Part shown: positions 2,235 to 56,944 of the stretch, piece by piece | Numbering within the stretch: position 1 is the stretch's first letter | Layout of the letters: every line of letters starts with the position of its first letter | Origin: Minisyncoccota bacterium | GTDB lineage: Bacteria; Patescibacteriota; Minisyncoccia; Phycocordibacterales; UBA5272 | Assembly (NCBI GenBank): GCA_041651055.1 | Contig: JBAZJW010000001.1 | Span: forward strand, 373,325 to 437,324 | DNA length: 64,000 nucleotides | Direction: 5' to 3' | Made by a program: the position numbers and the translations under genes | The notes under the pieces: model-generated | What the model was told of the DNA's origin: nothing | Databases searched by the model: none | The model's input: the letters and a program-made list of their open reading frames with translations, nothing else

Positions 2235-2573
2235 CTATTTTATGTACGTCTCTTTTCCTTCCAAAAGTGAACCGCTTGATTTACCAATAGAATGGAATTG
2301 GTCGTACGCTTCATTCCAAAAACTGGACAAGGCCTCACCTGGAGATTCCATGTTTGAAGGAGTGCTCGTACTTTGTACAACGAGTGCTGAATCATCCCTG
2401 ACATACCTATCATGCCAAAATCCGTAATCCGTATACAAAATAATCCCCGCTATCAGCACAGTGATACTTCCCGAAAAAATAAATGCATACACATGTTGCA
2501 TGTGTTTCGGCTGTCGCCGCAAAAAATCTATATAATATGCAAGACTTGTATATCGTTTAAGATGACGCTTCAT
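2235..2573 (-). CDS. hypothetical small membrane protein
   Basis: 112-aa ORF with one hydrophobic segment (FIFSGSITVLIAGIILY). No recognisable family. Confidence 0.3.
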   Translation of the reverse strand: MKRHLKRYTSLAYYIDFLRRQPKHMQHVYAFIFSGSITVLIAGIILYTDYGFWHDRYVRDDSALVVQSTSTPSNMESPGEALSSFWNEAYDQFHSIGKSSGSLLEGKETYIK

Positions 2574-2586
2574 GTATCGTTATTCG

Positions 2587-2952
2587 TTAGGACGTTCTTC
2601 GTTCTTCGTTAAATTTCTTAATAAATGCACTCAACATTTTCATAACATCTTCGAGTTTTAATGCAATCATATTAAAATCTTCATCAGCTATATACCCTAA
2701 TTTATGAGCCAACAAAAGTTGTGTTTCTACTTCTGCACCAGACCCATGTGAAATTTTTAAAAACTGAAGAAACTCCTTTTGCCCCCTTTTGCTTCCTTCA
2801 GAAATATTAGAGGGTATAGAAACTGCAGCCCTGCGAATCTGAGATGTTAAACCATATAATTCTTCTTTAGGAAAAGACTTAGTTGACTGATATATATCAA
2901 AACAAACATCAAAAGACTTTTTCCATACATCAAGATCTTTATACGAACTCAT
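2587..2952 (-). CDS. four-helix-bundle protein of the 23S rRNA intervening-sequence protein family
   Basis: 121 aa. DVWKKS...IPSNISEG...EFLQFLKISHGSGAEVETQLLLA matches the TIGR02436 / S23-ribosomal-like family. The gene is bracketed by inverted CGTTCTTCGTTAGG repeats, and its last 8 codons are encoded by the repeat. Confidence 0.7.
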   Translation of the reverse strand: MSSYKDLDVWKKSFDVCFDIYQSTKSFPKEELYGLTSQIRRAAVSIPSNISEGSKRGQKEFLQFLKISHGSGAEVETQLLLAHKLGYIADEDFNMIALKLEDVMKMLSAFIKKFNEERRTS

Positions 2953-3135
2953 GATAGCGTTAGTATATCCCCCTAACGAAGAACGACCTAACGAAGAACG
3001 GATTATCTACATTCCTCTAGTTCAAAAAATTGTTTTAGCTACGAGAAGCGACAATTTTTTGAAAGAAGGCGTACGCATAGTACGACGACTGCCAAAAATG
3101 CAGTCGCGACAAAGCAGATGAAGCAATTTTTTGAA

Positions 3136-3771
3136 CTAGAGTTCGTGGAAGAGAACAATTTCACCAAGCTTCCCATCAATATCCTTCTTCTTAATCGTAA
3201 GCTTCTCCACTGGTTCCACTTTTTCGGACCCCGCTTCTTTCAAAAAGACTGGAAGTGATTGTTCATCATAGTCCATCGGAATAATAAGCTTCGGTTCGAG
3301 TGCGACAGCGAGCTTCTGCGCGTCGTACGCATTAAGAAGGAATCCATCATGTCCAACTGGAACAAAAAGAAGATCTGTCTCATCGATGATTTCTTTGTGC
3401 TCGGAAGCGAGTGCTTGTGAGAGCGCTCCTAAGAACGTAATACGAATACCGTCTAAGGTAAGTACATAACTTGTATTCTGATATTCCTTTTCTTTTTTGC
3501 CGTCCATCAACTTGGTAGTCGTACCGAATCCTTTAATGAAAATATCCTTCACTTCATACTCTCCTGCACCACGAATAACGAAAGGAACTTTTTCTCCATG
3601 CTCTGTCTGTTCAGCGCCGTTGTAATCTGGGTGGTTCGTCGTAATGAGCGTAATATCCGCTCCATATTTGGCAACTTTCCCCTTCCCTTCTTTTGATACT
3701 GGGTTTATAGCCACGACCAAATCCCCGACTGTTAATTTGAAATGCTCTCGTCCGAAATAAGTGATAATCAT
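3136..3771 (-). CDS. MBL-fold metallo-hydrolase
   Basis: ITYFGREHFKL...PVSKEGK...HPDYNGAE...HDGF pattern typical of beta-lactamase-fold Zn hydrolases. The ORF track begins at 3813, but the likely start is MIITYFG at 3771. Confidence 0.55.
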   Translation of the reverse strand: MIITYFGREHFKLTVGDLVVAINPVSKEGKGKVAKYGADITLITTNHPDYNGAEQTEHGEKVPFVIRGAGEYEVKDIFIKGFGTTTKLMDGKKEKEYQNTSYVLTLDGIRITFLGALSQALASEHKEIIDETDLLFVPVGHDGFLLNAYDAQKLAVALEPKLIIPMDYDEQSLPVFLKEAGSEKVEPVEKLTIKKKDIDGKLGEIVLFHEL

Positions 3772-5326: not shown

Positions 5327-5566
5327 TATTACTTTGTATTCATACTGTTATTCAAATTGAATATTGAATATTTGATTCATTAAATATTTTTGACCCCTAA
5401 CCCCTAACTGTTGACTCCTAACTGTATTTAAAGTAGTATTACTCCCATCTATTAATAGATAATCGTTCTGGCGTAATCCCCGACTTGTGTGTAGTAAACA
5501 ACAAGACGGAGCCCAGACCGCAAGGTTAGCCGCCTTTCGTGGGCGGCCATTTTTTTACCCAACTAT

Positions 5567-6649: not shown

Positions 6650-6704
6650 AGATAGAAGCTCGAAGCTTAAGACTGGAAGCTGGAAGAGAAACACAACACA
6701 GAAA

Positions 6705-6738
6705 AAGCGGCGCCTACGGCGCCGCTCTTCCTTTTTAC
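6705..6738 (+). terminator. intrinsic terminator downstream of rpsA
   Basis: AGCGGCGCC-TACG-GCGCCGCT hairpin followed by CTTCCTTTTTAC. Flanked by inverted GGAAGCTGGAAG / CTTCCAGCTTCC arms. Confidence 0.6.
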
Positions 6739-6756
6739 TTCCAGCTTCCCTCTTCC

Positions 6757-6846
6757 AGCTGTTAGCTGTTAGCTGTTAGCTGTTAGCTGTTAGCTGTTAG
6801 CTGTTAGCTGTTAGCTGTTAGCTGTTAGCTGTTAGCTGTTAGCTGT
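6757..6846. repeat. tandem 9-mer repeat (AGCTGTTAG), ~10 copies
   Basis: Direct reading. It overlaps the last 5 codons and the stop codon of pth. Confidence 0.95.
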
Positions 6847-7376
6847 CCATTATATCTCTCCATCGCTTTCTGATATCCATCACTCGCGATAGTTTGCAGT
6901 GCACCTAATACACGAGAAGCAATTTCACGAAGTGATGTCTCCTCATCATCCCTAATCTTTCCCATGACATAATCCTGCACATCAGAACCTGATGGTGCGA
7001 GCACGACTTTACCATCGACATCATGTGGAGCAATACCGATACGAATACGAATAAAATCTTTTTTACCAAGAGACTCAATAATGTTTTTTACACCATTATG
7101 TCCACCATCTCCTCTATCAAATGAAATTCTAAATGTTCCAAACGCTAGATCTTTGTCATCATAAATAACAACAAGCTCGCGACCTTCGTGATAGCGTAAG
7201 TATTCACTCACCGCTTTGCCGCTTTCATTCATAAATGTTTCTGGTACGAATATTTCGTAGTCACTCATATGAGCAATGTCGCTTTCTATAGTCGCAAGCA
7301 TCACACGCGCAGCATTGTGACGTGTGCGCGCATACTTTTCACCAGGGTTGCCGAGCGGAACGAGTGTATAAATCAT
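6825..7376 (-). CDS. pth: peptidyl-tRNA hydrolase
   Basis: MIYTLVPLGNPGEKYARTRHNAARVMLA...HNGVKNII matches the Pth family N-terminal and catalytic-His motifs. Confidence 0.85.
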   Translation of the reverse strand: MIYTLVPLGNPGEKYARTRHNAARVMLATIESDIAHMSDYEIFVPETFMNESGKAVSEYLRYHEGRELVVIYDDKDLAFGTFRISFDRGDGGHNGVKNIIESLGKKDFIRIRIGIAPHDVDGKVVLAPSGSDVQDYVMGKIRDDEETSLREIASRVLGALQTIASDGYQKAMERYNGQLTANS

Positions 7377-7471
7377 ACTCGCAGTCTAGCATTAGCTAGA
7401 CTGCGAGTAAATTTTTAATTTTTAGTTCTTAATTTTTAATGAAACACGTAATGCAGGTATCGGTATTTACC

Positions 7472-7500
7472 TAAAAACTAAAAACTGGAAACTAAAAACT
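7472..7500 (+). promoter_or_regulatory. A-rich AAAACT box, copy 1
   Basis: TAAAAACTAAAAACTGGAAACTAAAAACT. It sits 32 nt before a TATACT -10 (7533-7538) and the lepB ATG (7548). Confidence 0.5.
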
Positions 7501-7523
7501 ATTCATGTGTTGCATAGCAACAC

Positions 7524-12298: not shown

Positions 12299-12427
12299 GG
12301 CCCAGTTAGGGGTTAACCGTTAGGAGTTAGGGGTACACATAAAAGCCTTATTTTGTTTACTGTTTTCTTACTCCTAACCCCTAACCGCCAACCCCTAACG
12401 GGGTTGGCAACAACACAAATTTTTTCT

Positions 12428-14006: not shown

Positions 14007-14966
14007 ATGCCCACCACATCCACTCTCTCCTCTTCCCTCTCACCTCTTGCCTACGATTTAATAATCGTAGGAGGTGGTCCCGCTGGTACTGCTGCGGCCG
14101 TCTATGCTGCTCGTAAGCAATTACGCTCGCTTCTCATTGTAAAAGAATGGGGAGGTCAATCAACGGTCTCAGATGATATTCAAAACTGGATTGGCACACC
14201 ACACATTTCTGGTGCGAATCTCGCAGCATCATTCAAGTCTCATATCGATGAATACAGAGGTGATATTCTTTCTGTTGCTGAAGGTTCTGGTGTCACCGCT
14301 ATTACAGGCACAGACGGCGACTTCACCGTCACTCTAGAAAACGGAAACGAACACAAAGGAAAGACCGTGATCATTGCCACAGGATCATCTCGTAGGAAAT
14401 TAGACATACCTGGTGCAGATATTTTCGAAAACAAAGGCATCACCTATTGTGCTTCATGCGATGGGCCACTTTTTTCTGGCATGGATGTAGTTGTTGTTGG
14501 TGGAGGAAATGCAGGCTTTGAATCTGCAGCTCAACTTCTCGCTTACTGTAAATCCGTCACACTTCTTTCACGAAGTGAGCCTCGGGCAGACGCCATTACC
14601 GTTGCAAAATTAAAGCAGCGTGAAAACTTTACCCTCGTTACCAATGCCGTTCCCAAGAATGTGCAGGGTTCAGTCTTTGTAGAATCTATTACCTACACCA
14701 AGTCAGAAACAAACGAAGACGTCACACTCCCTGTAGCTGCTGTCTTTGTCGAAATAGGACAACTTCCAGCCACAGACTTCGCGAAAGCTATTGTGAATCG
14801 TGATGCGACGAATCACATCATCATCAATCCACGTACACAAGAAACCTCTACTGTTGGCATCTGGTCAGCCGGTGACTGTACGGACGTGCTCTATCATCAA
14901 AACAATATCGCAGCTGGAGATGCTGTGCGAGCCTTAGAAGATATCTACCTCCATATTCACGCCTAA
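14007..14966 (+). CDS. trxB: thioredoxin-disulfide reductase-like FAD/NAD(P)-dependent oxidoreductase
   Basis: YDLIIVGGGPAGTAAAVYAAR FAD-binding Rossmann fold, CASC redox-active disulfide, VVVVGGGNAGFESA NADPH site. The ORF track starts at TTG 13998. Confidence 0.7.
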   Translation: MPTTSTLSSSLSPLAYDLIIVGGGPAGTAAAVYAARKQLRSLLIVKEWGGQSTVSDDIQNWIGTPHISGANLAASFKSHIDEYRGDILSVAEGSGVTAITGTDGDFTVTLENGNEHKGKTVIIATGSSRRKLDIPGADIFENKGITYCASCDGPLFSGMDVVVVGGGNAGFESAAQLLAYCKSVTLLSRSEPRADAITVAKLKQRENFTLVTNAVPKNVQGSVFVESITYTKSETNEDVTLPVAAVFVEIGQLPATDFAKAIVNRDATNHIIINPRTQETSTVGIWSAGDCTDVLYHQNNIAAGDAVRALEDIYLHIHA

Positions 14967-15023
14967 GTCGTTAGTCGTTAGTCGTTAGTCGTTAGTCGTT
15001 AGTCGTTAGTCGTTAGTCGTTAG
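14967..15023. repeat. tandem 8-mer repeat (GTCGTTAG), ~7 copies
   Basis: Direct reading. It begins immediately after the trxB stop codon. Confidence 0.95.
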
Positions 15024-15100
15024 GTAAATTGTAATGCGGGATAATTTGCTTTGCAAATTATCCCGCATTACCTAACGAAGAACACCCTAACGTCCTAACT
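15021..15100 (+). repeat. 80-bp hairpin module, copy 1
   Basis: Perfect stem GTAATGCGGGATAATTTG-CTTTG-CAAATTATCCCGCATTAC, followed by CCTAACGAAGAAC-ACCCTAACGTCCTAACT. Confidence 0.9.
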
Positions 15101-15141: not shown

Positions 15142-16884
15142 ATGCAAAAATATCTCTCTCTTATTGTTCGTCTCTGGAAAATGCTTAAACCTTTCCACAA
15201 AGACTTCTACTTACAGCTCTTCTCAACAATTATTCAACAAGGAATAACCGTATACGTTATTTACCTGACAGCAAAAGTTCTCGACAATCTCATTCATAAA
15301 AATTTTGAGGTAGCTCTTACTTTAGTGGGTATTACCACTACAATTTCTCTTGCGAAAGTCATCATTGCTTACTTCACCGAAATACATGCCCAGAACAATC
15401 TAGACTTTGCAATACAACAACACCTTCAAGAATATTCATTTAAGAAAATATTCAAATTAAACATTTCTCAATACACAGAAGATCACTCAGCAGTTAAACA
15501 GCAAGTTATAGACCGCGGTGAAGCAGCGATAGACACTATCATCTCTACGCTCATACTAAACCTTCTCCCGACAATAACCCAAGTGCTCTTTGCTATTATT
15601 GCTATTTCATTTTACTCAAAAATAGTTGGTATATGGACCTTTACCTCGCTTCTTATTGTGGTTTTGTGGAGTAACTACTTTGCGAAATATCATAGACCAT
15701 TCATAAAACAAGATATTGAAAATGGTGACAGACAAAAGAGAGTGCGAACAGAATCATTCCAACATCTAAGCCTCATTCGAACCCTTGGTGCCGAAGACTT
15801 CTATCTTGAAAAGTACCTCAACAGTAGACAAAAGGTTATGGACTACAAAAAGTTTGTGTGGAACATTGCCATAAAACATGGCCACAGAAGGTATGGATTC
15901 TTCACGGCATCCAGATCCTTTAGCACCGTCATTATTATTTACTTGGCATACATGGGGACAATAACCGTCGGATCAATCTACGCTGTTTGGGCGTATATCA
16001 GCGAAGCCAATAGTCAGATATTTAGTATTATTCAAGCAATACGACAAATGCCGCTTCGCTTTAGTGAGCTCGAAAAGTACCTAGACATTGTCGACAAAGA
16101 AGCTCTCTTTGACGAGCACGGAAAGAAAACAAAACTTGTTGGTGATATTGTTTTAAACAAGCTCACCTTCAAGTATCCACAGGGAAATATCGAGCTCTTC
16201 AATAATCTTTCTCTCACCATCCCCTACGGTAAAAAAGTTGCTTTCGTAGGTTCATCTGGTTCTGGAAAGTCCACCATTGTTAAATTGCTTCTTCGTATAT
16301 ATACCTACGATGAAGGCTCTATCACTATCGGTGGAGTGGAACTAAAAAACATAGAGGGTAAATATCTTCGAGAGAGTATTGGGTATGTTGAGCAGCACGT
16401 AGATCTCTTCGATGAAACCATACGAGAAAATATTTTAGTCGGTATAAAAAATAAAGACAAAAAAAGTGCAGAGAGAAGGTTGGGTGAAGTTGCAGAACAA
16501 TCTCGCATTTCTGAATTCTACCATCGCCTCGGTAAAGAAAAGTTCGACACGTACATCGGTGAACGTGGTGTGAAATTATCAGGTGGCGAACGTCAGCGTA
16601 TCGGTATCGCACGCGCAATTATCAAGAATCCAGACATCCTCATCTTCGACGAAGCAACGGCATCACTGGACGCAGAGAATGAAGCAAAGGTAATGGAAGC
16701 TATCAACGACGTCTCTCATGGAAAAACATCCATCATTATTGCCCATAGACTCTCTACCGTACGAGATGCTGATAAAATCATCGTCATGGATAAAGGGCAC
16801 GTTGTTGGTGAAGGAACTCACGATGAGTTGATGCAATCGTGTGACATATACCAAAATCTCGTCGCACACCAGTTATCAAGTTAA
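15142..16884 (+). CDS. ABC transporter, fused permease/ATP-binding protein (exporter type)
   Basis: Six N-terminal TM helices, then Walker A GSSGSGKST, ABC signature LSGGERQRIGIARA and Walker B ILIFDEATASLD. Confidence 0.8.
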   Translation: MQKYLSLIVRLWKMLKPFHKDFYLQLFSTIIQQGITVYVIYLTAKVLDNLIHKNFEVALTLVGITTTISLAKVIIAYFTEIHAQNNLDFAIQQHLQEYSFKKIFKLNISQYTEDHSAVKQQVIDRGEAAIDTIISTLILNLLPTITQVLFAIIAISFYSKIVGIWTFTSLLIVVLWSNYFAKYHRPFIKQDIENGDRQKRVRTESFQHLSLIRTLGAEDFYLEKYLNSRQKVMDYKKFVWNIAIKHGHRRYGFFTASRSFSTVIIIYLAYMGTITVGSIYAVWAYISEANSQIFSIIQAIRQMPLRFSELEKYLDIVDKEALFDEHGKKTKLVGDIVLNKLTFKYPQGNIELFNNLSLTIPYGKKVAFVGSSGSGKSTIVKLLLRIYTYDEGSITIGGVELKNIEGKYLRESIGYVEQHVDLFDETIRENILVGIKNKDKKSAERRLGEVAEQSRISEFYHRLGKEKFDTYIGERGVKLSGGERQRIGIARAIIKNPDILIFDEATASLDAENEAKVMEAINDVSHGKTSIIIAHRLSTVRDADKIIVMDKGHVVGEGTHDELMQSCDIYQNLVAHQLSS

Positions 16885-16888
16885 ATGT

Positions 16889-16976
16889 TAGTCGTTAGGT
16901 AAACTGTAATGCGGGATAATTTGCTTTGCAAATTATCCCGCATTACCTAACGAAGAACGCCCTAACGTCCTAACTT
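16889..16976 (+). repeat. 80-bp hairpin module, copy 2
   Basis: Near-identical to 15021-15100 and in the same orientation, so the two copies flank the ABC gene as direct repeats. Confidence 0.9.
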
Positions 16977-17386: not shown

Positions 17387-17413
17387 AAAACTAAAAACTG
17401 GAAACTAAAAACT
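17387..17413 (+). promoter_or_regulatory. A-rich AAAACT box, copy 2
   Basis: AAAACTAAAAACTGGAAACTAAAAACT, 23 nt upstream of TGCTATACT (17437-17445), which lies 7 nt before ATG 17453. Confidence 0.5.
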
Positions 17414-17452
17414 ATTTCATAGACTTTCCACTCTGCTGCTATACTATCTGGT

Positions 17453-18715: not shown

Positions 18716-18770
18716 GGTTTACCCTAAAGTATCGCTATGGTTTCTTTAGATTTTTCGTGTATATTTTTCT

Positions 18771-18798
18771 AAAAACTAAAAACTGGAAACTAAAAACT
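18771..18798 (+). promoter_or_regulatory. A-rich AAAACT box, copy 3
   Basis: Same 27-mer. It lies 39 nt upstream of TGATATACT (18838-18846), which is 6 nt before ATG 18853. Confidence 0.5.
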
Positions 18799-18852
18799 TT
18801 CATGGACGTTCTCCACTTTCACACCATATACCACATGTGATATACTTTTCAT

Positions 18853-21565: not shown

Positions 21566-21594
21566 CTTTTTAGTTTCCAGTTTTTAGTTTTCAG
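21566..21594 (-). promoter_or_regulatory. A-rich AAAACT box, copy 4 (minus orientation)
   Basis: Reverse complement of the 27-mer. On the minus strand it is followed after 10 nt by TATACT, then 5 nt, then the NUDIX ATG. A partial extra copy lies at 21631-21647. Confidence 0.5.
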
Positions 21595-21636
21595 AAGATA
21601 CAAATACAAGGCGAGGCCTTGTATTAAAAATAGTTT

Positions 21637-22374
21637 TTAGTTTTTAGAATCAAGCAGAATGGTAGACGAAGGATTGAATCCTTTAACGACGAGCCAGATA
21701 CCGAGTGAAAATTCAAAGAGTGCTACGAGTAATGCAAATAATCCTGTGATTGGTGCATGTTGTCCGACGACGCCGAATAATATCGCAAGATACCCCACGA
21801 TAAGCACAGGTCCTCCGATGATTCCAATCAAAGAAAGGCCGCGAGGCACGAGGCGTGATTGATACAAAAGGACACCCAACAAAATGTCATTTATTGCTGG
21901 TAAGAAACTTTGACCAAGAAGGAAGATGCGATCATATAATATGGCGAGTGTGTGACCAGTAACGAGAGCCGCTGCTCCCGCACCCTCTTGTCGCAAAGCA
22001 ACAATCGACAAAAGAAAAGCTACACCGACAAACATAGTGCTTGCTTCTAGAATTCTGGATGCAACGAGACCTAATGCGAGTGTTTCATTCTGCTTTTTGA
22101 GCAATGGGAATAATACAATAGCCGTACCGATACCAGCGAGAGCCACGATGATTTCCGAAATACCTCCGATGATCATTGCTGTATCGGGGCCAACGCCGAG
22201 AATATAGCCAGCACTTTTTACTTGTCCATAGAGTGCAAGTGTTGGTATCGAAACAAAAGTGAGTAGATATAGCAAGCCTGCCGTTAATGATATTTTTCTT
22301 GAGGGTGATAAAACTTTCTTATATACCCCTTCCGTTCCAACAGTCTTCTCATTTCCAATTATTTTTTGTTCCAT
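21637..22374 (-). CDS. multi-pass membrane protein, possibly DUF4386-like
   Basis: 245 aa with about 7 hydrophobic helices. Family assignment is tentative. Confidence 0.4.
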   Translation of the reverse strand: MEQKIIGNEKTVGTEGVYKKVLSPSRKISLTAGLLYLLTFVSIPTLALYGQVKSAGYILGVGPDTAMIIGGISEIIVALAGIGTAIVLFPLLKKQNETLALGLVASRILEASTMFVGVAFLLSIVALRQEGAGAAALVTGHTLAILYDRIFLLGQSFLPAINDILLGVLLYQSRLVPRGLSLIGIIGGPVLIVGYLAILFGVVGQHAPITGLFALLVALFEFSLGIWLVVKGFNPSSTILLDSKN

Positions 22375-27962: not shown

Positions 27963-27988
27963 AATATAGATTCTGGTATACTGCTCTT

Positions 27989-29174: not shown

Positions 29175-29204
29175 AGTTTTTAGTTTCCAGTTTTTAGTTT
29201 TTAG
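29175..29204 (-). promoter_or_regulatory. A-rich AAAACT box, copy 5 (minus orientation, no downstream -10 found)
   Basis: Reverse complement of the 27-mer, directly after the tsaD stop and facing back into tsaD. No TATACT follows on the minus strand. Confidence 0.4.
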
Positions 29205-48788: not shown

Positions 48789-48875
48789 GAAAATAGTATA
48801 CCAAGAATAGGTTTTAGGTGATAGGTTTTAGGCTGTAGATAGGGGTAGGAATATTCAATGAAACAATATTCAACA

Positions 48876-50311: not shown

Positions 50312-50334
50312 AGTGAGACCAGTATACCTTAACT

Positions 50335-50364
50335 AGTTTTTAGTTTCCAGTTTTTAGTTTTCAG
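50335..50364 (-). promoter_or_regulatory. A-rich AAAACT box, copy 6 (minus orientation)
   Basis: Reverse complement of the 27-mer, 5 nt upstream of TATACT, which lies 10 nt before ATG 50311. Confidence 0.5.
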
Positions 50365-50559
50365 AGAATGCGAAAAGCGAAATCGGCAGATTTCGCTTTT
50401 AGTTTCCGCATTTCCTAACGAAGAACGACCAACGATTAACGAGTAACGAGAGCCTTCTATAATAGTCAGGAATATTCAATAACTTAATATCTAATATTCA
50501 AATCAAATGCATTGCATTTCTTTGAATATTGGTTATTAAAACATTGAATATTGTTGTTA

Positions 50560-52330: not shown

Positions 52331-53356
52331 CTACCCGATAAAGTTCACTTCCCTTTCCAGATGAATATCCGTTGCTTCGGAAACTTTTTCGGTAATTAAT
52401 GTAGCAAAAGCGTCAAGTTCCTCATACGTCGCATCGCCATAATTTACGATTACAAGCGGCTGTGCTGGCCATGTGCCGACATTTCCCACTGTCACCCCTT
52501 TCATCTGTGTCACGTGCTCTATAAGCCATGCTGAGGGCACCTTGTATCCGCCCTCTACATCGTGAATAGGCATATCACACCACTTCGCACGCATAGCATA
52601 TGCTTGAGACCTCGTTACAATAGGATTCTTAAAAAATGACCCCGCATTCGGATAGGTTTTGTAATCTGGAAGCTTCTCGGCACGTGTACGGAGAACAAGA
52701 TCTCGCACGTCGTTCGGTGTCAGGTCTTGTTTTAAAGTAAGTGTATCGAGTGGCTTGTAGGTAAGTTTTGGATTCTTGGTTTTGGAAAGTTTCATCGTTG
52801 CCTCTGTGATGATGTATCTCCCTTTTTCACGCTTGAATAGTGAATCGCGATATCCGAACTGACACGCATCATTTGAAAAAGAAACGAATTCCATGGTTGT
52901 GATGTCATATGCGCGGAGTGATACGAATACATCTTTAAGCTCCACTCCATACGCGCCGATATTTTGTACAGGAGAAGCACCGACTGTCCCTGGTACACCA
53001 GAAAGATTTTCTATTCCCCACAAATTAGCATCTACGGAAAACTTCACCACATCATCCCACTTCTCCCCTGCTCCGACAGTGAGAAGCACCTCGTCGGCTT
53101 CTGTTTTTTCTGTTGACTGCTGATTGCTGACTGTTGACTGTTTTTTAATTTCCATTTTTACAATCAACAGGTCCGGAAGTATATTTTTAAAAACAGTGTT
53201 CGTTCCTTCACCGAGAACATGAACGCGTAGATTGTTGGCCTTCGCATAATCACACGCTTCACCGAGAGAAACCTCCGAGGTCACGGTCACCATATCTGCC
53301 TCTCCACCAATGTGAAGCGATGTGTAATCTTTAAGAGAGACGTGCTGTATATTCAT
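52331..53356 (-). CDS. murB: UDP-N-acetylenolpyruvoylglucosamine reductase
   Basis: LKDYTSLHIGGEADMVT...VLGEGTNTVF FAD-binding PCMH N-terminus; C-terminal MurB domain. About 20 aa Q/S/T-rich insertion. Confidence 0.8.
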   Translation of the reverse strand: MNIQHVSLKDYTSLHIGGEADMVTVTSEVSLGEACDYAKANNLRVHVLGEGTNTVFKNILPDLLIVKMEIKKQSTVSNQQSTEKTEADEVLLTVGAGEKWDDVVKFSVDANLWGIENLSGVPGTVGASPVQNIGAYGVELKDVFVSLRAYDITTMEFVSFSNDACQFGYRDSLFKREKGRYIITEATMKLSKTKNPKLTYKPLDTLTLKQDLTPNDVRDLVLRTRAEKLPDYKTYPNAGSFFKNPIVTRSQAYAMRAKWCDMPIHDVEGGYKVPSAWLIEHVTQMKGVTVGNVGTWPAQPLVIVNYGDATYEELDAFATLITEKVSEATDIHLEREVNFIG

Positions 53357-54799: not shown

Positions 54800-56633
<1,834 letters not shown>

Positions 56634-56944
56634 ATTTAATAGAGTGTGACAAAAGAAAAAACAAAAAAATGCACAATGTTTATGTAATGTATTGTGAAGC
56701 GTCACTTCAGTTCTTTTTTATGTTTAGAATTTCTAAAACAAAAAAGGAGCTGAACAGCTTCTATTAAAATTTCAAATGACTACAATTACTGCTCACTGCT
56801 TATGAGTAAGAAGTAGGACTATTCTATACTGTGCAGCACGTAAAGTCAAGCTTCTAATCAACAACACAAGCCATAACAGACAAACTTTTACAATATCCAC
56901 AGATATGCTTGCCATTTAAGGCTATTTTGATTAAACTCGTAGCA

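Follow-up and report, generated by a model that had tools for sequence, protein, structure and literature searches.

Why should a gene of the IVP/S23p family lie among protein-coding genes, far from any 23S rRNA, and why should it be bounded there by inverted repeats? To our knowledge, members of this family carry merely the annotation "four helix bundle protein" and have since 1993 been treated almost solely as cargo of 23S IVSs. The gene considered here lies in a 64,000-nt stretch of a Minisyncoccota genome (contig JBAZJW010000001.1, positions 373,325 to 437,324), which we call the window and within which all coordinates are given. We propose that gene and repeats together form an IVS-type cassette that sits in an operon spacer, rides on host transcription and is closed by the pairing of its two arms. 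To this model as a whole we give a probability of roughly 60%; that the unit is a cassette, whatever its arms do, we regard as very probable.

The product of 121 amino acids exceeds the curated cutoffs of both family profiles, PF05635 (E 1.3e-38; 131.9 bits, cutoff 33.8) and TIGR02436 (E 1.3e-37; 128.3 bits, cutoff 24), as well as the cutoff of NF008911 (148.6 bits, cutoff 137). It thus belongs to the 23S rRNA IVP (S23p) family, as the original prediction of a four-helix-bundle gene had claimed. It shows a four-helix-bundle fold like that of XCC0516 and BT_0352 and carries the conserved family motif GxxRxxxSxxxNxxE (Zhang and Ye 2014; Lin et al. 2006; quoted in PMC3936711). In our alignment A1, Q38, R40, P47, S48, N49, E52 and G53 never vary, and G34 hardly does. 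The protein is under strong purifying selection, since its dN/dS is 0.06-0.075, and it is probably an Avd-like, pentameric four-helix bundle. The family is very large, with at least 7,939 members at E <= 1e-10 among 8,000 candidates scored, and a phmmer search of all six-frame ORFs found no second IVP gene in the window. The gene and its surroundings are made up as follows.

2587..2952, minus strand: IVP/S23p-type four-helix-bundle gene, 121 aa (PF05635 and TIGR02436 profile matches)
2969..3003, minus strand: 5' arm, arm-L (direct repeat D1; inverted repeats I1, I3, I6 and I7)
2962..2967, minus strand: TATACT -10-type box within the arms, its start 15 nt ahead of the ATG
2577..2611, minus strand: 3' arm, arm-R, a degenerate array of heptamers, on the plus strand TCGTTAT/TCGTTAG/.../TCGTTAA (TRF period 7, 4.9 copies)
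2235..2573, minus strand: downstream host gene TM112, a 112-aa membrane protein, starting 13 nt after the IVP stop
3015..3141, unstranded: adjoining 127-bp inverted-repeat (MITE-like) element, separate from the cassette (I2, 26-nt arms, 88% complementary; fold z -6.6)

Read along the gene strand, the cassette runs from the 5' arm through the TATACT box and the ORF to the 3' arm; it is a unit of ~430 bp (about window 2577-3003) between ordinary genes, an MBL-hydrolase gene on one side and the 112-aa membrane-protein gene on the other. The 3' arm is the reverse complement of the 5' arm: a repeat search of the region returned inverted arms of 26 nt, 92% complementary, at 2578-2603 and 2975-3000, and CCTAACGAAGAACG is found as two tandem copies at 2972-3000 and as an inverted copy at 2577-2611. 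On the gene strand arm-L reads CCGTTCTTCGTTAGG TCGTTCTTCGTTAGG, two 15-nt units composed of GTTCTTC/GTTAGG heptamer-like subunits, and it pairs with arm-R in both the MFE and the centroid folds of 2570-3010, giving a stem of about 24 bp. That a repeat precedes the gene and that its inverted copy closes it had been predicted and holds, but arm-R encodes the last 7 codons and the stop (NEERRTS*) instead of the last 8 codons. No other of the 57 window genes reaches the flank-complementarity score of the IVP gene (42 vs a median of 15). The arms, moreover, differ at 7 of 78 nt as compared with 36% of synonymous sites (p 7e-5), and so change about four times more slowly. The 127-bp element next to the cassette is not part of it, being present without the IVP gene in two relatives (L098, L099) and absent beside it in another (L003).

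A TATACT-type box stands 12-17 nt before the ATG in 19 of 56 window genes, and the one in the cassette, kept in all 8 of the 8 aligned cassettes and turned round with the ORF in L015, is a putative promoter of the leaderless type. Next to the cassette TM112 has no -10 box of its own; in IVP-less relatives a TATACT box of its own stands before it.

Terminal inverted repeats that form an enclosing stem are what an rRNA IVS has, and the cassette has them; insertion within a 23S (or 16S) gene, the other mark of such an IVS, it lacks. The sole rRNA in the window is a 16S gene at 54893-56640 (Rfam), 52 kb from the cassette, no similarity to 23S was found in the window, and nothing ribosomal overlaps the gene, which had been described from the start as lying outside any rRNA. 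The window's 16S does carry an insertion of 217 nt, without heptamer arms and without an IVP ORF, and 16S insertions were rejected as carriers of the cassette arms, which are absent there. The companion claim, that the family is usually found inside 23S rRNA, fared differently: blastn with E. coli 16S and 23S, which detected the window's 16S as a positive control, gave no 16S or 23S similarity at any of 104 homologue-bearing loci, on metagenome-assembled contigs that under-represent rRNA operons. For the IVP family a location outside rRNA appears, from these loci, to be the norm and not the exception.

The same build accompanies the family well beyond this genome. The homologues compared were the best 80 protein matches of the first 600 pattern matches, a sample picked regardless of flanks and not at random. 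Among 84 homologues drawn from many phyla, none of them close to rRNA genes, the median flank-complementarity score is 30, vs 14 for mismatched pairs, and 82% of these IVP genes lie above the control's 95th percentile, compared with 2.6% of 268 other genes at the same loci. MFE folds pair the flanks by at least 18 bp at 66 of 84 loci; with a swapped downstream flank the number falls to 21 of 84. The median arm is 30 nt long, and arms end about 18 nt before the ATG on one side and start at the stop codon on the other. Tandem arrays are 12-fold enriched near IVP genes, arm arrays have a period of 7 or 8 in 105 of 110 cases, and the period is equal on both sides at 36 of 39 loci; the unit sequence of the arrays differs widely between loci while the invariant residues of the protein do not. 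Among operon-embedded copies both neighbours are co-oriented with the gene in 63 of 66 and both opposed in 3 of 66. The armed build, with ~30-nt arms of period 7-8 that hug an ORF co-oriented with its host operon, is therefore family-wide, and its recurrence across many phyla suggests that such cassettes, selfish or mobile, form a widespread class that has been little described.

Comparison of close homologues shows that the arms belong to the cassette, since they follow the lineage of the ORF and not the insertion site. Close homologues are enclosed by the ends CCTAACGAAGAACGACCTAAC at each of three unrelated sites, namely MBL-hydrolase/gyrA, UvrD/RsmA (where both orientations occur) and within the genes of a T4SS cluster, and arm-L is kept at all three. 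When cassettes from different sites are aligned (alignment A3), homology begins 35-45 nt before the ATG and stops at CCTAAC just past the stop codon. Two arm types track two IVP lineages, each of them present at the MBL as well as the UvrD site, and the 13-mer CCTAACGAAGAAC occurs only in the cassette ends of the close-homologue loci (L001-L014, L106, L107) and in solo elements of the window. The MBL site is filled in the window, L003 and L109, and the MBL/TM112/gyrA arrangement is found without an IVP gene in six relatives (L096-L100, L104), whose MBL hydrolases are 79-84% identical and one of which (L097) has a spacer of just 3 bp. At the UvrD site the cassette is flipped between the same neighbours in L015 as compared with L011 (UvrD 81%, RsmA 67% and IVP 71% identical), with its arms unchanged. 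A query with UvrD for the source genome's own UvrD/RsmA site gave no match from the 559-kb source contig.

In having defined ends that move with their cargo and in being present or absent at orthologous sites, the cassette behaves as a transposable or MITE-like element does. Because the spacers of empty and filled MBL sites have strongly diverged, with other hairpin elements in them, no target-site duplication is definable. The IVP gene is the only ORF of the cassette, and the annotation of cassette and window contains no transposase, integrase, recombinase or reverse transcriptase. Repeat copy number showed no change, as would mark phase variation, in the 10 independent assemblies compared. 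The arms do not differ within sets of 8 and of 2 independent samples, so recent activity is not evident. The gene is syntenic in close relatives (93% identity), and the pattern of sites can also be read as ancient occupancy followed by repeated loss.

Beyond the cassette, the window holds a number of related repeats.

14966..15099, unstranded: ORF-less relative, (TCGTTAG)x8 followed by a perfect hairpin of 16 bp and by CCTAACGAAGAACACCCTAACGTCCTAAC; fold a single extended hairpin, z -8.3
16886..16975, unstranded: ORF-less relative, second copy of the 14966..15099 hairpin element, right arm CCTAACGAAGAACGCCCTAACGTCCTAAC; fold z -10.1
50334..50450, unstranded: ORF-less relative, (TAGTTTT)x4, a hairpin, CCTAACGAAGAACG, then TAACGAN heptamers; two arms not complementary
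12299..12400, unstranded: inverted GTTAGGG/CCCTAAC heptamer arms between ftsA and ftsZ; fold z -4.1
6655..6846, unstranded: GAAGCTG array, GC hairpin, CTTCCAG array and (AGCTGTT)x12.9 (TRF and sequence)

Period 7 accounts for 25 of 49 TRF rows of the window, and arrays of this period stand in about 14 of its spacers, several as array-hairpin-array. The right arm of the element at 14966..15099 matches the cassette end with 1 mismatch; that at 16886..16975 contains an exact 14-mer match and agrees at 21 of 22 nt with the plus strand of the cassette arm at 2972-2993. Cassette ends of 13-21 nt thus also occur on ORF-less hairpins, at 15071, 16946 and 50414, where the original prediction had rightly seen related units and had placed them at 15069, 16947 and 50410. 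Its wider repeat family is real in so far as the window has 9 occurrences of the cassette-end 14-mer, at up to 2 mismatches, vs 0.38 expected (0 of 100 shuffles reach 9), but GTTAG and CTAAC are not enriched across the window (49 and 42 found vs 47 and 64 expected); their units cluster in a few intergenic arrays. Some details need correction: the array given as (AGCTGTTAG)x10 is really the heptamer AGCTGTT x12.9 at 6757-6846, which supplies the final 7 codons of pth, and (GTCGTTAG)x7 is really AGTCGTT x8.3 at 14966-15023. Of the two inverted arrays proposed, the ftsA/ftsZ spacer does contain a true pair (12305-12334 / 12374-12399), but 5393-5422 holds CTAAC-type units only, with no inverted partner seen. 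The central claim, an inverted-repeat-bounded cassette in a repeat-seeded genome, is borne out by the ends shared at three sites and by the ORF-less hairpins bearing the same ends; the strain comparison suggested along with it finds the MBL site empty in six relatives, the repeats flank other copies of the family, and the gene is not stably syntenic.

The model that we favour takes the cassette to be an IVS-type element that landed in an operon spacer instead of an rRNA gene. In read-through transcripts from the upstream host gene the arms would pair and the ~24-bp stem would close the cassette as a loop. RNase III would then cut the arm stem, as it does in the 23S rRNA IVSs of Coxiella, Leptospira and Salmonella, releasing a cassette RNA with paired ends and uncoupling the flanking host messages. 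This step, drawn from that analogy, we hold at a little under even odds; the stem is in principle long enough for RNase III, and no gene for the enzyme is annotated in the window. As the TATACT box lies inside the arms, a transcript from the cassette's own promoter would lack the 5' arm, and the stem would form only in read-through RNA; the same promoter may also drive the downstream host gene, with which co-transcription is presumed. Within the DGR ribonucleoprotein Avd binds a stem-loop of RNA, and by analogy the arm duplex is the probable ligand of the IVP protein. Movement would most plausibly proceed by recombination of the arms with other, similar hairpins of the genome that have heptamer arms and are candidate ORF-less derivatives or landing pads.

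The strongest competitor, though an unlikely one, places the function of the arms in DNA: they would be recombination or hairpin substrates by which the ORF is moved, flipped or exchanged, the RNA stem would be incidental and the solo hairpins would be landing pads or empty cassettes. The flip between unchanged neighbours with unchanged arms, the three occupied sites with two lineages sharing sites, the empty sites, the solo elements with the same ends and the position of the promoter inside the arms all fit such a role. In a test for selection on RNA pairing, moreover, stem mismatches showed no strand bias (G.T 88 vs A.C 95) and hence no excess of G.U; the count, uninformative or negative, does not demonstrate such selection, and a DNA-level role fits equally well. 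It does not, however, predict the co-orientation with host transcription (63 vs 3), the stems of canonical IVSs are proven RNase III substrates (PMC4990558), no enzyme for such a reaction was identified, and no polymorphism was seen within populations.

Less likely again is a resident host gene whose repeats are operator or attenuator sites, the ring-shaped IVP oligomer binding its own message or promoter region and so regulating itself and the gene downstream. The strong selection on the protein and the conservation of arm sequence beyond what pairing needs would suit an autoregulator, as would a 5' arm that abuts the -10 box, a 3' arm just before the start of the next gene, the stable synteny at 93% identity and the binding of RNA by Avd; a period of 7-8 nt that stays constant while the unit sequence varies could reflect the geometry of the ring. 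That very variation, beside residues that are invariant, argues against sequence-specific recognition, however, while presence and absence, change of site and the flip argue against a fixed gene, and the complementarity of the arms is left unexplained.

A by-product of heptamer arrays growing genome-wide beside hairpins or terminators, with the gene merely between two such spacers, would account for the many period-7 spacers of the window, several of them array-hairpin-array, and for the non-complementary arms at 50334-50450. It is largely refuted, and so very improbable, by the family-wide association (arms around 82% of IVP genes in many phyla vs 2.6% of other genes) and the conservation of the same arms with the ORF at other sites in other organisms, as well as by the top rank of the IVP gene among the 57 window genes. 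An Avd accessory gene or remnant of a diversity-generating retroelement is the least probable and was rejected, the protein scoring far below the cutoffs of NF033474 (24.4 bits, cutoff 80) and PF22296 (25.8 bits, cutoff 40), with no reverse transcriptase (RVT family) among called genes of the window +-10 kb, no TR/VR pair or long imperfect direct repeat seen near the gene, and housekeeping genes as neighbours.

If the gene is normally a repeat-armed, operon-embedded cassette, then the rRNA IVS is only a special case of something more general, and where IVP genes have been reported in "association" with cas operons or with phage regions (PMC3936711, PMC5524665), the reason may simply be that a cassette has inserted there. 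It would also give a testable handle on Avd relatives outside DGRs, as proteins that bind or guard long-range duplexes, of RNA or of DNA, built from short tandem repeats, offer a possible origin for intergenic heptamer arrays and allow genome annotation to flag such cassettes from sequence alone. More tentatively, and with the odds somewhat against it, we suggest that the rRNA IVS is one niche of a larger, hitherto undescribed class of IVP/S23p cassettes with inverted arrays of 7-8 nt, co-directional in operons, rRNA genes and phage genomes, which would be cut from host transcripts at the arm stem and handled by their own Avd-like ring protein, and whose ORF-less derivatives would have given rise to the intergenic heptamer arrays of this CPR genome and perhaps to the TAACTGA/STRR-type arrays of Cyanobacteria, Bacteroidetes and Beggiatoaceae.

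Of the systems already known, the 23S IVS with an S23p/IVP ORF (the Coxiella burnetii, Leptospira, Brucella and Xanthomonas type) is the closest: it shares the ORF family, the terminal inverted repeats that enclose the ORF in a long stem and the sense orientation of the ORF within the host transcript. The IVS of Coxiella has a 28-bp terminal stem and, like the cassette, tandem heptamers in its 5' part just before the S23p start codon, in this case GACAGAT, with RNase III cutting at the first repeat (PMC4990558). This heptamer observation was the only link between the IVP family and flanking tandem repeats that we found in open-access papers, a search that is no proof of novelty. The 23S IVSs lie in helix 25 or 45 of 23S rRNA, whereas the cassette lies between protein-coding genes, has its own -10-type box and gives promoter context to a downstream host gene. 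The Coxiella ORF is decaying and probably untranslated, in contrast to the strongly selected ORF of the cassette, and RNase III cleavage, proven for the canonical stems, is for the cassette, known as sequence, proposed by analogy. Insertion sequences encoding 23S_rRNA_IVP have been described in the 16S and 23S rRNA of CPR bacteria (Tsurumaki et al., bioRxiv 10.1101/2024.02.27.582315); they share with the cassette the broad host group (Patescibacteria) and the protein family, but lie inside rRNA genes, and a search of that paper's text found no description of heptamer arms.

Avd (PDB 4DWL, 8UB7) is a pentameric RNA-binding ring whose target is an RNA stem-loop; in the DGR RNA, a long-range duplex that flanks TR brackets the functional core (bioRxiv 10.1101/2023.10.23.563531). 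The IVP protein is only 11% identical to Avd in sequence, with HMM scores below the cutoffs, and the cassette, unlike a DGR, has no reverse transcriptase and no TR/VR pair, the bracketed core being the protein's own ORF. The TAACTGA heptamer repeats of Beggiatoaceae, Cyanobacteria and Bacteroidetes (MacGregor 2015, PMC4679880), a paper in whose text neither "S23" nor "intervening" occurs, resemble the cassette arms in being tandem 7-nt units, mostly intergenic and often just before start codons, with stop codons in all frames and an overlap of a few codons with gene ends; they are described as direct repeats with one inverted set only, whereas the cassette arrays are complementary pairs around a gene or a hairpin. 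With MITEs and other transposase-less inverted-repeat elements, finally, the cassette shares terminal inverted repeats, small size, presence and absence among relatives and ORF-less copies in the genome. It differs from them in lacking a definable target-site duplication, in carrying an ORF that is conserved and under selection but encodes no known transposase, and in having as its ends tandem-repeat arrays whose unit sequence differs between lineages.

The open reading frame that we call the IVP gene encodes 121 amino acids by gene call, and profile searches match its product to PF05635 (23S_rRNA_IVP; E 1.3e-38) and TIGR02436 (four helix bundle protein; E 1.3e-37). No second IVP gene is present in the 64-kb window. 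The AlphaFold model is confident (four helices, pLDDT 92), and the exact protein is also encoded in a second assembly. The gene order, all on one strand, is MBL-fold hydrolase (MBL), IVP, TM112 and gyrA. Between the window and L003, a related locus in another genome, dN/dS of the ORF is 0.065, and in two other pairs it is 0.06-0.075; values this low (0.06-0.075) mean that the protein is functional.

Features of the locus
2235..2573, minus strand: TM112, gene for a 112-aa membrane protein
2587..2952, minus strand: IVP gene
2578-2603 and 2975-3000: inverted arms
3015-3141: 127-bp MITE-like element

On the gene strand, the sequence 5' of the IVP ATG is CCGTTCTTCGTTAGG-TCGTTCTTCGTTAGG and next GGGA-TATACT-AACGCTATC, and the ORF ends in AAC GAA GAA CGA AGA ACG TCC TAA, followed by CGAATAACGA. 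The inverted repeat that the original prediction saw around the gene is real, a repeat search giving 26-nt arms that are 92% complementary, and so is the related repeat family, the 14-mer CCTAACGAAGAACG (at most 2 mismatches) occurring 9 times in the window against 0.38 expected. The gene has the highest flank-complementarity score of the 57 window genes (42; median 15), and the predicted RNA fold of 2570-3010 is closed by a terminal stem of ~24 bp, alike in the MFE and centroid structures.

When relatives were compared for presence or absence of the cassette (the ORF with its two arms), filled, empty and flipped sites were all seen. Homologues with 93% identity are syntenic and share the window's arms, and eight assemblies carry them in identical form. 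Six relatives, with an MBL hydrolase 79-84% identical, have MBL, TM112 and gyrA without an IVP gene, and their MBL/TM112 spacers, from 3 bp (L097) up to 272 bp, are occupied by a long palindrome, by unrelated terminators, or by a homologue of the window's 127-bp inverted-repeat element, which is separate from the cassette. At L109 (MBL 76% identical) an IVP gene is again found at the MBL site, 64% identical to that of the window and with different arms. At other sites, homologues of 70-81% identity lie in sense between UvrD and RsmA genes in L011, L107 and L108; a further one is inverted at that same site in L015, and another is antisense within T4SS-like genes in L106. Between L011 and L015 (UvrD 81%, RsmA 67% and IVP 71% identical) the ORF and its TATACT box are flipped, and the arms look alike on the host strand. 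The IVP identity matrix does not group the cassettes by site.

Cassette lineages
Lineage A, arms of CGTTCTTCGTTAGG / CCTAACGAAGAAC type: window and L003 (MBL site); L011, L107 and L108 (UvrD site); L106 (T4SS)
Lineage B, arms of GTTAGGnGTTAG type: L109 (MBL site); L015 (UvrD site)

A DNA alignment of eight cassettes shows cross-site homology from 35-45 nt before the ATG to CCTAAC just past the stop, limits that give a unit of ~430 bp at about 2577-3003 of the window. The 13-mer CCTAACGAAGAAC, searched for in all 130 loci, is confined to lineage-A cassette ends and the three ORF-less elements of the window. The cassette is a discrete unit whose arms travel with the ORF from site to site, which supports its original description as an inverted-repeat-bounded cassette, and it has been gained, lost or flipped among relatives. 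In L108 the UvrD gene has a cassette on each side (154-531 and 2626-2985); these two share only 36% identity, each with complementary arms of its own.

Small hairpin elements have a hot spot in the MBL/TM112 spacer, whose occupants vary among relatives: a ~150-nt palindrome, simple terminators, the 127-bp element, the IVP cassette, or nothing (examples are L096 3455-3610 and L097 637-640; in L097 the two genes share a single base). The 127-bp element has 26-nt terminal inverted repeats, CTCTAGTTCAAAAAATTG...CAATTTTTTGAACTAGAG; its insertion at the MBL-hydrolase 3' end supplies the new last codons CTC TAG, and just beyond it the older end of the gene survives as a relic, GAATGTAG. L098 and L099, which lack the IVP gene, have homologues at this site, and L003 has the IVP gene and no homologue of the element.

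The build of the cassette at this locus is typical of the IVP family. Loci were sampled by a profile search of contigs with a 27-homologue alignment, the best 80 of the first 600 pattern matches being taken with flanks disregarded; these 80 represent Bacteroidota, Patescibacteria, Clostridia, Desulfobacterota, Acidobacteriota, Nitrospirota, Chlorobiota and others, with one contig labelled archaeal. Flank complementarity was scored for the 90 nt upstream against the final 30 nt of the ORF together with the 90 nt that follow. For 84 sampled IVP genes the median is 30, where mismatched locus pairs give 14, and the 95th percentile of that control is exceeded by 82% of the genes; 268 other genes of the same loci have a median of 15, with only 2.6% above that level. 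Significant arrays flank the gene on at least one side in 71/81 loci (within-ORF control, 0/81), with a period of 7 or 8 in 105/110 arrays, and at 36 of 39 loci both flanks share the period. The unit sequence varies between loci with complementarity kept (GGTTAGT/ACTAACC, GGATTCAAG/CTTGAATCC, TAGTCGA/TCGACTA), and array density within 120 nt of IVP genes is 12 times that in the rest of those loci. Median arm length is 30 nt; the 5' arm stops ~18 nt before the ATG, and the 3' arm starts at the stop codon and overlaps the end of the ORF in 27 of 72 loci. RNAfold pairs the flanks over at least 18 bp in 66/84 loci, versus 21/84 with the downstream flank swapped. Copies on IMG/VR viral contigs have the same arms.

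The original prediction that the family lies mainly within 23S rRNA was not borne out: none of 104 loci shows 16S/23S similarity, with a working positive control and with the caveat that rRNA operons are under-sampled in metagenome-assembled contigs. Contigs of only 0.5-2 kb carry a large share of the close IVP homologues, as fits assemblies that break at or near cassettes that are armed with repeats and may be multi-copy; rRNA-borne copies that the locus sample misses could be among these contigs. In the window, the 16S rRNA gene (54893-56640, minus strand) is 1748 nt long, with an ORF-less insertion of 217 nt at 55252-55469, near model position 1158; helix 6 is longer by ~57 nt (about 56494-56569), and both insertions have stems and neither has heptamer arms. 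A tRNA-Ile follows, and the 23S gene is absent from the window, so that the rRNA genes are apparently unlinked.

Comparison of the window with L003 finds 7/78 nt changed in the arms against 36% of synonymous sites (Fisher p 7e-5), with 4/9 nt different in the TATACT-to-ATG spacer; as the arms diverge less than synonymous sites, they are under constraint. Mismatches in arm pairing show no strand bias (G.T 88 vs A.C 95), and the constraint is therefore not specifically attributable to pairing in the RNA of one strand. An action of the arms at the DNA level is a tentative possibility, compatible with the cassette reading; the cassette encodes no known recombinase. Equally compatible, and rather unlikely, is a role of the arms as an autoregulatory operator. 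Chance or by-product origin of the arms is effectively excluded by the 82% of IVP genes against 2.6% of other genes with such flanks. A DGR (diversity-generating retroelement) is effectively excluded too, models of the DGR accessory protein Avd giving weak matches under cutoff and the Pfam annotation of called genes across the whole window holding no reverse transcriptase; transposase, integrase and RNase III were likewise absent from it. For the cassette itself, we infer that it rides host transcription, since its orientation agrees with that of both neighbours at 63 loci and opposes both at 3; the median gaps to the neighbours are 67 and 45 nt. The arms would form a stem in read-through RNA, to be cut by RNase III as in rRNA IVSs (intervening sequences), and the Avd-like IVP protein probably binds the arm duplex.

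A TATACT, TAGACT or TATAAT box begins 12-17 nt 5' of the ATG in 19/56 window genes, often preceded by TG or GG (for example 17438-17443, 18839-18844, 27975-27980), and a few other genes have AAGGAG Shine-Dalgarno sites instead; the boxes suggest leaderless-type promoters, with leaderless or near-leaderless mRNAs probably common in this genome. The IVP gene has a TATACT-type box, TM112 has none, and gyrA has its own further upstream; in IVP-less relatives TM112 has its own TATACT box. The box of the cassette may now serve TM112 too in this genome.

Heptamer arrays recur elsewhere in the window, with period 7 in 25/49 Tandem Repeats Finder rows and 7 strong arrays in a stricter scan (0 in shuffled sequence); GTTAG and CTAAC are clustered and show no overall enrichment. 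Units first read as 9-mers and 8-mers are heptamers, AGCTGTT x12.9 at 6757-6846 and AGTCGTT x8.3 at 14966-15023, and of the inverted GTTAG/CCTAAC arrays that at 12299-12400 stands, with complementary arms, one other having been misread as inverted. The usual intergenic layout is a heptamer array, a perfect hairpin and a complementary heptamer array.

Array-hairpin elements
7410-7501: single extended hairpin, fold z-score -1.8
12299-12400: single extended hairpin, fold z-score -4.1
14966-15099: single extended hairpin, fold z-score -8.3
16886-16975: single extended hairpin, fold z-score -10.1
50334-50450: ORF-less element, arms of different unit with no complementarity between them

Arrays of the TTTTTAG / CTAAAAA family
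7410-7501, 17387-17414, 18769-18798, 21567-21647, 29175-29204, 48808-48832, 50334-50361

The cassette arm shares 21/22 nt with the right arm of the ORF-less element at 16946, and such heptamer-armed hairpins sharing cassette ends may be derivatives or landing pads. The ABC-transporter gene 15142-16884, second-highest in flank complementarity in the window, lies between two copies (15020-15100, 16886-16975) of one ~90-nt palindromic element, GTAATGCGGGATAATTTGC TTT GCAAATTATCCCGCATTAC plus heptamer arms. The array at 6757-6846 adds seven array-encoded codons (QLTANS plus stop) to pth (6825-7376, minus strand), giving a peptidyl-tRNA hydrolase of 183 aa versus 176 aa in the close relative L003; AGCTGTT-type units carry a TAG on one strand and a TAA on the opposite one, so that translation through such arrays is stopped in each of the six frames. 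A (CTGTTGA)x4.7 array (53110-53142) lies within the annotated N-terminal part of murB (52331-53356, minus strand); on the gene strand its unit lacks a stop codon, and either the array is translated or the true start lies downstream of it. The second heptamer family, TTTTTAG / CTAAAAA with variants, occupies many spacers, often immediately 5' of a TATACT box, where a -35 or UP element would sit.

Set beside known systems, the cassette is an IVS-type S23p element outside rRNA. IVP ORFs are reported in 16S and 23S insertion sequences of CPR bacteria and termed functionally uncharacterised (bioRxiv 10.1101/2024.02.27.582315). Eighteen IVP genes reported inside cas operons, for example in the cmr3-cmr2 interval, were read as functional association (PMC3936711), and in Flavobacterium gmk-IVP-nadD is listed in a region termed phage (PMC5524665); both cases fit plain cassette insertion in operon spacers. 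Intergenic TAACTGA heptamer repeats have been described in Beggiatoaceae, Cyanobacteria and Bacteroidetes, in a text containing neither 'S23' nor 'intervening' (PMC4679880). We found no description in the open-access literature of inverted 7-8-nt tandem arrays as a general IVP-family feature, and the family-wide repeat-arm architecture appears undescribed. The single locus is of modest interest; the generalisation, which can be tested directly, matters for work on mobile elements, RNA processing and DGR/Avd biology. Avd, the only relative with a known role, is a positively charged pentameric barrel needed by the DGR reverse transcriptase; it binds an RNA stem-loop, and a long-range duplex brackets the core of the RNA on which it works (bioRxiv 10.1101/2023.10.23.563531). 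Nearest in build is the 23S IVS of Coxiella, an S23p ORF with a 28-bp terminal inverted-repeat stem and two or three tandem GACAGAT heptamers, depending on strain, just 5' of the start codon; RNase III cuts the stem at the first of these repeats, and IVSs had earlier been proposed to be transposition remnants, or mobile elements with a mobility-aiding ORF (PMC4990558). The Coxiella IVS differs from the cassette in being a single case, inside rRNA, with an ORF that is apparently decaying.
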